Sequence record: J02468.1 | Length of the DNA: 205 nt | Reading direction: 5' to 3' (one strand) | From: a phage | Shown here: one piece after another, positions 1-205 of the stretch | Position numbering within the stretch: position 1 is the stretch's first letter | Layout of the letters: every line of letters starts with the position of its first letter | The notes under the pieces: generated by a model | Told to the model about the DNA's origin: nothing | Databases searched by the model: none | The model's input: only the letters and a program-made list of their open reading frames with translations | Program-made: the position numbers and the translations under genes

Positions 1-39
1 TTCCCTCAGGAGTGTGGGCCAGCGAGCTCTCCTCGGTAG
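1..39 (+). CDS. rep: 3' end of RNA-dependent RNA polymerase (replicase beta subunit) gene of an MS2-like ssRNA phage; partial, 5' end outside window; frame 1 reads F-P-Q-E-C-G-P-A-S-S-P-R-stop (TAG 37-39)
   Basis: Frame 1 is open from position 1 to TAG at 37-39. This leaves a 166-nt 3' UTR, which is in the range I recall for MS2-group phages. The downstream sequence matches the MS2-type 3' terminus from memory. Frame choice rests on that recollection, not on a homology search. Confidence 0.5.
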   Translation, partial: FPQECGPASSPR

Positions 40-50
40 CTGACCGAGGG
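30..50 (+). other. RNA hairpin: stem 31-36 (CCUCGG) with 44-49 (CCGAGG), optional U30-G50 wobble, 7-nt loop UAGCUGA containing the putative replicase stop codon
   Basis: Six consecutive Watson-Crick pairs read directly from the sequence; the TAG at 37-39 lies in the loop. Confidence 0.55.
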
Positions 51-68
51 ACCGTAAACGGGGTGGGT

Positions 69-84
69 GTGCTCGAAAGAGCAC
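69..84 (+). other. RNA hairpin: 6-bp stem GUGCUC/GAGCAC capped by GAAA (GNRA) tetraloop at 75-78
   Basis: Perfect inverted repeat 69-74 with 79-84 around GAAA; C74-G79 closing pair. Confidence 0.6.
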
Positions 85-86
85 GG

Positions 87-100
87 GTCGCGAAAGCGGT
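87..100 (+). other. RNA hairpin: short stem (C89-G98, G90-C97, C91-G96, plus G-U wobbles 88-99 and 87-100) capped by GAAA tetraloop at 92-95
   Basis: Inverted repeat CGC/GCG around GAAA with flanking wobble pairs, read directly from the sequence. Confidence 0.45.
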
Positions 101-103
101 GGC

Positions 104-119
104 TCCACCGAAAGGTGGG
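104..119 (+). other. RNA hairpin: 5-bp stem CCACC/GGUGG (105-109 with 114-118), plus U104-G119 wobble, capped by GAAA tetraloop at 110-113
   Basis: Perfect inverted repeat around GAAA; C109-G114 closing pair. Confidence 0.55.
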
Positions 120-120
120 C

Positions 121-130
121 GGCTTCGGCC
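121..130 (+). other. RNA hairpin: 3-bp stem GGC/GCC capped by UUCG tetraloop at 124-127 with C123-G128 closing pair
   Basis: GGC-UUCG-GCC read directly; C(UUCG)G is the classic extra-stable tetraloop context. Confidence 0.45.
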
Positions 131-157
131 CAGGGACCTCCCCCTAAAGAGAGGACC

Positions 158-170
158 CGGGATTCTCCCG
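158..170 (+). other. RNA hairpin: stem CGGGA/UCCCG (158-162 with 166-170) with 3-nt loop UUC, or a 4-bp stem with 5-nt loop
   Basis: Inverted repeat read directly from the sequence. An alternative pairing of 133-140 with 151-158 (with one A-A mismatch) overlaps it by one base. Confidence 0.4.
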
Positions 171-174
171 ATTT

Positions 175-200
175 GGTAACTAGCTGCTTGGCTAGTTACC
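175..200 (+). promoter_or_regulatory. 3'-terminal hairpin of the phage genome: perfect 10-bp stem GGUAACUAGC/GCUAGUUACC with 6-nt loop UGCUUG at 185-190
   Basis: Ten consecutive Watson-Crick pairs (175-184 with 191-200). Position immediately upstream of the ACCCA terminus. Matches my recollection of the MS2 3'-terminal stem-loop. Confidence 0.65.
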
Positions 201-205
201 ACCCA
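201..205 (+). promoter_or_regulatory. Single-stranded 3' tail ACCCA ending in CCA; site where replicase initiates minus-strand synthesis in leviviruses
   Basis: The sequence ends in ...ACCACCCA right after the terminal hairpin. Levivirus genomes are known to end in CCCA/CCA, with the terminal A added untemplated. Confidence 0.55.

Follow-up and report, generated by a model that had tools for sequence, protein, structure and literature searches.

The window, by which we mean the whole 205-nt stretch of DNA analysed here, is the final 205 nt of the phage MS2 genome. It carries the replicase stop codon and the 3' UTR and ends in the terminus ACCACCCA, its last letters being ...UUACCACCCA. When the window was compared with deposited phage genomes by blastn, 129 MS2-like records were matched, and all full-length matches map to nt 3360-3569 of the 3569-nt MS2 genome. 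The alignment to NC_001417 covers the same interval, and the aligned bases of the window agree with those of modern MS2 isolates (GQ153924, DL1) at 100% of positions over 3360-3569. In the annotation of NC_001417 the rep CDS ends at 3398, which corresponds to window position 39, and the remainder of the window is 3' UTR. The first-pass annotation, made from the letters alone, had guessed a levivirus 3' UTR; the 129 blastn records and the rep CDS annotation show that the guess was correct and that the phage is MS2. The location directly after the replicase stop codon and the nucleotide identity to MS2 3' ends place the segment in the Emesvirus 3' domain. This copy is 205 nt long as compared with 210 nt in every deposited MS2 record, and the 210-nt form is referred to below as authentic MS2.

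The last hairpin of the replicase region, which is of the R1 type, is present in the MFE structures of the isolates DL16, ST4 and J20. In the window's own MFE structure an alternative pairing that spans 2-51 overlaps it. The fr sequence supports the hairpin by a compensatory replacement of a G-C pair with an A-U pair (CUCAGU/ACUGAG). The features of the window are collected in Table 1.

Table 1. Coordinates of features in the 205-nt window (position 1 is the first letter of the window).
Feature	Position	Strand	Remarks
3' end of replicase (beta subunit) CDS	1..39	+	stop TAG at 37-39; equals NC_001417 3360-3398
Last replicase hairpin (R1-type), UCCUCGGU-AGCUG-ACCGAGGG	30..50	+	stop codon in and adjoining the loop
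Hairpin between R1 and ld IX, CCG-UAAA-CGG	52..61	+	CCCCG-UAAA-CGGGG in all other records; three C's missing
ld IX 5' strand, UGGGU	64..68	+	pairs with 201-205; found in window MFE, authentic MS2 MFE and RNAalifold consensus
Hairpin 1, GUGCUC-GAAA-GAGCAC	69..84	+	MS2 nt 3431-3446; pair probability 1.00
Hairpin 2, (U)CGC-GAAA-GCG(G)	88..99	+	authentic CCGC-GAAA-GCGG; pair probability 0.28 in window, 0.95 in authentic MS2
Hairpin 3, GC.CCACC-GAAA-GGUGG-GC	102..120 (core 105-118)	+	pair probability 1.00
Hairpin 4, GGC-UUCG-GCC	121..130	+	authentic GGGC-UUCG-GCCC; pair probability 0.01 in window
Hairpin 5, GGG.CCUC...GAGG.CCC	133..158	+	MFE and consensus; three compensatory pairs relative to fr
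A-protein-protected stretch	146..163	+	equals MS2 nt 3510-3527; by coordinate mapping
Hairpin 6, GGGA-UUC-UCCC	159..169	+	invariant in MS2 isolates and fr
Terminal hairpin U1, GGUAACUAGCU-GCUU-GGCUAGUUACC	175..200	+	Mat-bound stem-loop; MFE
3' terminus ACCCA	201..205	+	ld IX 3' strand and replicase initiation end

The MFE structures of authentic MS2 and of fr both describe a multibranch domain that is closed by ld IX and contains seven hairpins, four of which are tetraloop-capped. The seven consist of the four tetraloop hairpins, the hairpin at 133-158, GGGA-UUC-UCCC at 159-169 and U1 at 175-200. When seven group I sequences were analysed with RNAalifold, the consensus agreed with this structure. 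The domain is closed by pairing of the terminus ...ACCACCCA with the upstream GGGUGGGU stretch. Covariation support for ld IX is absent because its pairs are invariant in all the sequences compared. According to Rumnieks and Tars, the 3' domain is closed by ld IX throughout the Leviviridae, its hairpins increase from three in distant phages to seven in MS2, and the UGCUU loop of U1 is conserved (PMC3561173). In the window UGCUU is located at 185-189, the arms of U1 form an 11-nt perfect inverted repeat, and one pair in U1 is compensatory relative to fr. The idea that the tetraloops belong to a compact folded domain was thus borne out by the predicted folds and by the published architecture, the domain being the 3'-terminal one closed by ld IX (PMC3561173). 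An Rfam scan of the window at a permissive E-value returned chance-level matches (best E = 1.8-4, with scores far below gathering), and a model for the 3' domain of leviviruses appears to be lacking from Rfam 15. ARAGORN detected no tRNA-like structure in the window.

Inside this domain four hexamers, CGAAAG at 74-79, 91-96 and 109-114 and CUUCGG at 123-128, are each flanked by complementary arms. The loops with their closing bases are C74-GAAA-G79, C91-GAAA-G96, C109-GAAA-G114 and C123-UUCG-G128; the three GAAA loops (75-78, 92-95 and 110-113) are of the GNRA type and every one is closed by C-G. The motifs and coordinates given by the first-pass annotation are exact when read against the sequence. 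The spacing of 15-18 nt that it gave holds for the first two start-to-start distances (17 and 18 nt), and the third is 14 nt. Contiguous pairing of the arms amounts to 7 bp in hairpin 1, 5 bp in hairpin 2 (3 Watson-Crick and 2 G.U), 6 bp in hairpin 3 and 3 bp in hairpin 4.

Such a concentration of tetraloops had been called unusual, and the statistics agree. Four C-G-closed GNRA or UUCG hairpins with stems of at least 3 bp occurred in 0 of 20,000 dinucleotide-preserving shuffles of the window. When any closing pair was allowed, four or more hairpins were obtained in 41 of 20,000 shuffles, and four or more of the bare hexamers alone were obtained in 174 of 20,000. The segment 60-135 is more stable than its shuffles, with a z of -3.3. 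In a near-complete MS2 genome from IMG/VR (3540 nt), 4 of the 10 GNRA/UUCG hairpins fall within this stretch of about 66 nt, which makes up about 2% of the MS2 genome; in the C-G-closed subset the proportion is 4 of 6. In the hairpin segment the plus strand exceeds its complement in stability by 5-6 kcal/mol. These results indicate that the tetraloop density is real, non-random and specific to the plus strand.

The folding of the four hairpins depends on which copy is examined. In authentic 210-nt MS2 all four are part of the MFE structure, with pair probabilities of 1.00, 0.95, 0.97 and 0.33 for hairpins 1 to 4, respectively. The value for hairpin 4 at this length reflects a competing alternative pairing, and in a 510-nt context of authentic MS2 the probability is about 1.0 for all four hairpins. 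In the window, hairpins 1 and 3 both reach 1.00, hairpins 2 and 4 fall to the values given in Table 1, and hairpin 4 is missing from the MFE structure. The expectation that folding would recover four stem-loops therefore holds for authentic MS2, and in the window itself it holds robustly for hairpins 1 and 3 only. The cUUCGg motif at 123-128 illustrates the difference: its stem has 3 bp and a probability of 0.01 in the window, as compared with 4 bp and 0.33-1.0 in authentic MS2.

The five bases that are missing from this copy all lie in C or G runs: before position 54 a run of CCCCC is shortened to CC, at 89 a single C stands in place of CC, and at 121-122 GG stands in place of GGG. Four of the five belong to G-C pairs of conserved stems, and their partners on the opposite side show no compensating change. 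As a consequence, the CCCCG-UAAA-CGGGG hairpin is shorter by two pairs, and hairpins 2 and 4 are shorter by one pair each, hairpin 2 through loss of a C and hairpin 4 through loss of a G, in both cases from the 5' arm. The MFE is -106.5 kcal/mol for authentic MS2 and -97.5 kcal/mol for this copy. The low probabilities of hairpins 2 and 4 in the window (0.28 and 0.01) are due to the absence of that one C and that one G from their stems. The contracted version was absent from deposited phage records, from IMG/VR contigs and from GTDB genome contigs. The five contractions are probably a sequencing or base-calling error in G+C-rich hairpins and not biology. For MS2 the description of four hairpins is entirely correct; in the window as given it is, according to the predicted thermodynamics, only half realised. 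Because the five homopolymer contractions damage conserved stems, this copy is unfit as a structural reference. A separate observation concerns the RefSeq/Fiers record NC_001417, in which a local discrepancy abolishes hairpin 2.

Comparison with relatives provided the covariation that had been proposed as a check on the stems, and the outcome is in favour of them: hairpins 3 and 4 of fr contain five double compensatory changes, with the loops conserved. The sequences compared are of limited diversity, and all of them agree in direction. Hairpin 3 of fr reads GCUCAUCA-GAAA-UGGUGGGU and differs from MS2 by three double substitutions in the stem. Hairpin 4 of fr, GAGGG-UUCG-CCCUC, differs by two double substitutions, and its closing pair is flipped to G-C. 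A sequence-based MAFFT/RNAalifold alignment shifts fr by one column in hairpins 3 and 4 and scores their pairs as broken; the fr pairs were therefore scored from loop-anchored pair tables. Hairpins 1 and 2 of fr have the same sequences as those of MS2, against an identity of about 85% for the 3' ends overall. Within MS2-like isolates, the segment 69-130 varies only in J20, where the loop of hairpin 2 is changed from GAAA to GUAA and is still GNRA, and in FrBlood, where a C-G pair of hairpin 3 is changed to U.G. The MFE structures of authentic MS2, J20, DL1 and fr all contain the four local hairpins.

Beyond fr, the CCCC...GGGG arms that precede ld IX are kept in MS2, fr, DL52/54, GA, BZ13 and KU1, and the tetraloop hairpins are reduced in number. 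DL52/DL54 have a single hairpin, GCCGC-GAAA-GCGGC, in which the sequence of hairpin 2 occupies the place of hairpin 1; among the Emesvirus relatives examined, the hairpin 2 sequence recurs outside MS2 and fr only in these two. GA, BZ13 and KU1 have one equivalent of hairpin 1 each (GUGACC-GAAA-GGCCAC or GGGACC-GNAA-GGUUCC). In the equivalents of hairpin 1 the stem is changed and the GNRA loop is kept, as seen in GGGACC-GUAA-GGUUCC of KU1, GGGACC-GAAA-GGUUCC of T72 and GUGACC-GAAA-GGCCAC of GA. In DL52/54 and in GA, BZ13 and KU1 this single tetraloop hairpin is followed by unrelated hairpins with loops of 4-6 nt. Hairpins 3 and 4 are absent from DL52/DL54, GA, BZ13 and KU1, the closest relatives compared, all of them Emesvirus. 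T72 possesses a second GNRA hairpin, CGCC-GUAA-GGCG, acquired independently. The 3' ends of M, PRR1, PP7, AP205 and Qbeta contain one GNRA/UNCG loop or none.

On the sequences compared, hairpin 1 is the only one of the four that is conserved genus-wide in Emesvirus, and the array of all four occurs only in the MS2/fr lineage, to which hairpins 3 and 4 are confined. In the 3' domain, gain and loss appear to concern entire hairpins, which behave as modules. Tandem Repeats Finder and a direct-repeat search of the window gave no sign of a recent tandem duplication of the hairpin array. The sole repeat in the window is a 10-nt element containing GGGACC, at 44-53 and 129-138. Metagenomic sequences were also searched. 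With the pattern TGCTTGGCTAGNNACCACCC, IMG/VR returned GA only, and seven metagenome matches to this pattern were set aside as chance, since they lie inside long contigs without GGGTGGGT upstream; this search thus added no diversity. The 81 matches to GGGGTGGGTGN5CGNRAG were likewise taken as chance, being mostly in contigs much longer than a levivirus genome.

What, then, is the function of these hairpins? GNRA loops commonly engage in tertiary contacts, and the three GAAA loops might dock in helix or receptor sites, thereby building a tertiary structure in which the 3' UTR is offered to the replicase or to the maturation protein (Mat), or which aids packaging. We regard this as unlikely, but it accords with several observations. 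The loop class is kept upon mutation (GUAA in hairpin 2 of J20 and in hairpin 1 of KU1), hairpins 1 and 2 are sequence-invariant between MS2 and fr, and the 3' UTR adjoins the maturation protein in virions (PMC8880383, PMC6635492). However, the window contains no canonical 11-nt GAAA receptor (CCUAAG...UAUGG), as UAUGG does not occur anywhere in it; the nearest resemblance, CCUAAAG at 143-149, falls within the hairpin 5 loop. The absence of hairpins 3 and 4 from DL52/54, GA, BZ13 and KU1 is a further difficulty. The mapped Mat contacts also lie elsewhere. U1 is bound by Mat in MS2 and Qbeta (PMC8880383) and MS2 nt 3510-3527 are protected by the maturation (A) protein (PMC5007439), both sites being downstream of the four hairpins and outside 69-130. 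With respect to the replicase, initiation takes place at the penultimate C of the 3' terminus (PMC10610835). A plus strand with both UTRs is insufficient as a replicase template, which also speaks against docking, and the 3' UTR complement is dispensable for minus-to-plus transcription (PMC6847885). The earlier proposal that the four hairpins organise the binding of replicase or Mat, or packaging, is not upheld, given that the mapped Mat contacts fall outside 69-130 and that hairpins 3 and 4 are absent in relatives. A literature search on the tetraloops of the MS2 3' UTR returned nothing specific; in the structural papers on MS2 that were examined the 3' UTR comes up solely with regard to U1 and Mat, and the literature examined is silent on what the MS2/fr-specific hairpins 2-4 do. 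The 3' end lies outside the region covered by the published X-ray footprinting (bioRxiv 10.1101/2021.08.10.455819). The original work on the A-protein footprint is reportedly that of Shiba and Suzuki in 1981.

The signature of the MS2 coat-protein operator is a loop with A at both -4 and -7 and with a pyrimidine at -5, together with an A bulged out at -10. The GAAA hairpins have a purine at -5 and G at -7, the UUCG hairpin has no A at -4, and none of the four stems contains a bulged A. The operator-type signature is therefore absent from all four hairpins. It is very improbable that the hairpins are packaging signals that bind coat-protein dimers during assembly, also in view of their lack of conservation in close relatives, even though the MS2 genomic RNA touches the capsid at numerous stem-loops, tetraloops rank as the commonest class among the candidate packaging signals and the published signal maps include stem-loops of the 3' UTR (PMC5964074; bioRxiv 10.1101/2021.08.10.455819). 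The local hairpins themselves could be questioned if GGGUC at 85-89 paired with GGCCC at 127-131 at the expense of hairpin 4, as in the window's MFE structure. In energy the window does prefer this arrangement (-97.5 kcal/mol as compared with -94.3 kcal/mol for the canonical structure mapped onto the window), and the probability of hairpin 4 is only 0.01 in the window and 0.33 in the authentic 210 nt. The alternative arises in the window largely because of the two stem contractions peculiar to this copy. As the real fold it is scarcely credible, since authentic MS2, J20, DL1 and fr all give four local hairpins in their MFE structures, all four reach about 1.0 in the 510-nt context, and the fr substitutions compensate within the local stem of hairpin 4.

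A different explanation starts from the other end of the genome. The 5' hairpin of the plus strand is GGACCCC-UUUC-GGGGUCC, and the minus strand accordingly has GGACCCC-GAAA-GGGGUCC and then CACCC at its 3' end. Hairpin 1 combined with ld IX might thus be a replicase recognition element that mimics the minus-strand 3' end, where a C-GAAA-G hairpin lies beside a CCACCC tail. Through the complement of the 5' hairpin on one template and through hairpin 1, by way of ld IX, on the other, both templates carry a C-GAAA-G hairpin beside a C-rich initiation end. In MS2, fr, DL52 and KU1 alike, the 3' end of the minus strand folds into a GAAA-capped hairpin, after which comes a 5-nt C-rich tail. The stem covaries, with GCGCCCC-GAAA-GGGGCGC in KU1 in place of GGACCCC-GAAA-GGGGUCC. 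Hairpin 1 alone is kept genus-wide, is always GNRA and abuts the helix that holds the plus-strand 3' terminus, and transcription depends on the minus-strand 3' UTR complement (PMC6847885). The likeness is nevertheless one of resemblance only, and a need of the plus strand itself may account for the conservation of the UUUC loop in its 5' hairpin. In addition, terminal hairpins alone are poorly recognised by the MS2 replicase (PMC6847885), the GA record has no 5' hairpin (this is an old sequence and may be erroneous) and the stem at the hairpin 1 position differs in DL52/DL54. We consider such an element improbable. Its extension, in which a C-GAAA-G hairpin by a C-rich 3' tail would be a replicase element of both strands and hairpins 2-4 of MS2 and fr would be duplicated or decoy copies that tune access, is a still longer shot.

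The explanation that we prefer is structural. Window 69-130 (MS2 nt 3431-3494) contains four of the seven hairpins of the ld IX-closed 3' domain, and these probably act as stable structural modules. This structural reading is favoured by the fact that hairpins 3 and 4 are missing and only one of hairpins 1 and 2 is kept in the other Emesvirus phages examined. Since each hairpin combines a short G+C-rich stem with an extra-stable loop, local, quick and independent folding is expected. In the model that we propose, about 62 nt of non-coding RNA would be converted into a rigid, fully paired and nuclease-resistant scaffold. The scaffold would hold the multiloop and ld IX in register, and the 3' CCA end and the neighbouring Mat-binding hairpins (hairpin 5 and U1) would be presented in one defined fold. 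Hairpin 1, which abuts ld IX and is kept genus-wide, would for that reason be a core element, and hairpins 2-4 would be lineage-specific modules that are gained or lost as whole units. Hairpins 2-4 are probably maintained by selection for paired, stable RNA and not by a sequence-specific ligand. RNA phages are said, on the strength of work from the van Duin laboratory, to be under pressure against unpaired RNA, and the structural reading fits this known pressure. It is from these considerations that we infer a function in scaffolding, stability and fast folding. That hairpins 1 and 2 have the same sequence in MS2 as in fr, set against about 85% identity overall, hints at a sequence-specific partner and not at a purely structural role.

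The MS2 3' UTR fold has been drawn since the first genome sequencing and has been revisited by comparative analysis and cryo-EM. The four-hairpin feature is the long-known MS2 3'-terminal domain and as such is already known. The earlier interpretation is partly supported, being right on what the feature is and where it lies and unproven on why it is there. The result shows that a reader without tools can spot a real structured domain and otherwise matters little. Two by-products are useful, namely that the contracted copy should not serve as a structural reference and that the discrepancy in NC_001417 removes hairpin 2. What the hairpins 2-4 specific to MS2 and fr do is a small question.

Extra-stable tetraloops of the GNRA and cUUCGg types occur in rRNA, group I and group II introns and RNase P. 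The four MS2 hairpins equal them in loop sequence, in the C-G closing pairs and in the short G+C-rich stems; they differ in that they are known from sequence and a predicted fold and in that the window is without the 11-nt receptor. In comparison with the MS2 3'-terminal domain (Emesvirus zinderi), the window is the same object, with ld IX, the U1 hairpin and the terminal ACCACCCA all present, less five bases in C or G runs. Qbeta, PP7, AP205, PRR1 and M are like MS2 in that the 3' end is paired upstream and encloses a few hairpins including U1, and unlike MS2 in that they have 3-5 hairpins without a tandem tetraloop array (PMC3561173). In fr, DL52/DL54, GA, BZ13 and KU1, ld IX, the CCCC...GGGG hairpin upstream of it, the UGCUU loop of U1 and the terminus are common with MS2, and in all of them a GNRA-capped hairpin comes directly after the ld IX 5' strand. 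DL52/54, GA and KU1 have one tetraloop hairpin each and T72 has two, whereas fr possesses all four tetraloop hairpins of MS2, with closing pairs of A-U in hairpin 3 and G-C in hairpin 4.

The 3' end of J02468.1 is five nucleotides shorter than every one of the full-length deposited MS2 3' ends (11 of 11), with the missing bases falling at three contractions. Four of the five bases are each one partner of a conserved G-C pair, the partner side is uncompensated, and the uncompensated losses would cost ~9 kcal/mol according to predicted folding. The shorter variant was not found in IMG/VR or GTDB contigs. The five missing bases look like a homopolymer or compression sequencing error.

Coordinates of the features in the window and the compared records
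Feature	Location	Strand	Detail
Contraction	window 52-53; MS2 3411-3415		CCCCC to CC
Contraction	window 89; MS2 3450-3451		CC to C
Contraction	window 121-122; MS2 3484-3486		GGG to GG
Discrepant stretch of MS2 reference	L001 2088-2106 (NC_001417/V00642 nt ~3447-3465)		equivalent to window 85-102
Last replicase hairpin	window 30-50		UCCUCGGU-AGCUG-ACCGAGGG
Direct repeat	window 44-53 and 129-138		CCGAGGGACC / CCCAGGGACC
Search match H18	LC710218.1 nt 47-223	minus	3605-nt record labelled 'MS2'
fr hairpin 5	L003 446-463		CUGGCC-CCGAAA-GGUCAG
Region of the minus-strand 3'-end hairpin	L027-L031 1-45 (5' ends of MS2, fr, GA, KU1, DL52)	minus

The RefSeq/Fiers record has GGGUGCGAAAGCGGUCCGGCUCC in the discrepant stretch; the nine remaining group I 3' ends in the alignment carry GGGUCCGCGAAAGCGGUGGCUCC instead. 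With the GGGUGCGAAAGCGGUCCGGCUCC version, hairpin 2 is abolished in the predicted fold. This discrepancy is probably a historical sequencing error. The LC710218.1 match comprises 172 nt of the 3' UTR, inverted and close to the 5' end, in a stretch annotated as maturation protein. A snap-back or an assembly artefact may account for it.

Upstream of the tetraloop hairpins, the last replicase hairpin has the UAG replicase stop (window 37-39) at the edge of its loop, and its stem carries compensatory changes in fr. In both copies of the direct repeat, GGGACC is followed by a C-run that opens a hairpin, and the repeat itself may be due to chance.

Across the 3' UTRs of DL52 (L005 2067-2163), DL54 (L023), GA (L006), KU1 (L007) and T72 (L026), the hairpins of the 3' domain behave as modules. 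DL52 and DL54 correspond to MS2 without a 19-nt block, made up of hairpin 1 and a linker, and then have different hairpins downstream. T72 has gained a GUAA tetraloop on a hairpin whose loop is 5-6 nt in GA and KU1. At the position of hairpin 5, MS2 has CCCCUAAAGA in place of the fr sequence. The CGAAAG motif also occurs inside this fifth hairpin of fr, and judging from the sequence an internal mismatch there could be topped by a further GAAA loop, the fourth.

A hairpin capped by C-GAAA-G is found at the minus-strand 3' end of MS2, fr, DL52 and KU1, where it immediately precedes the CACCC/CAACC tail, and its stem shows covariation in KU1; the GA record lacks it in the region of 5'-end nt 1-45. 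The minus-strand hairpin parallels hairpin 1 of the plus strand, which adjoins ld IX, the long-distance pairing that closes the 3'-terminal domain.
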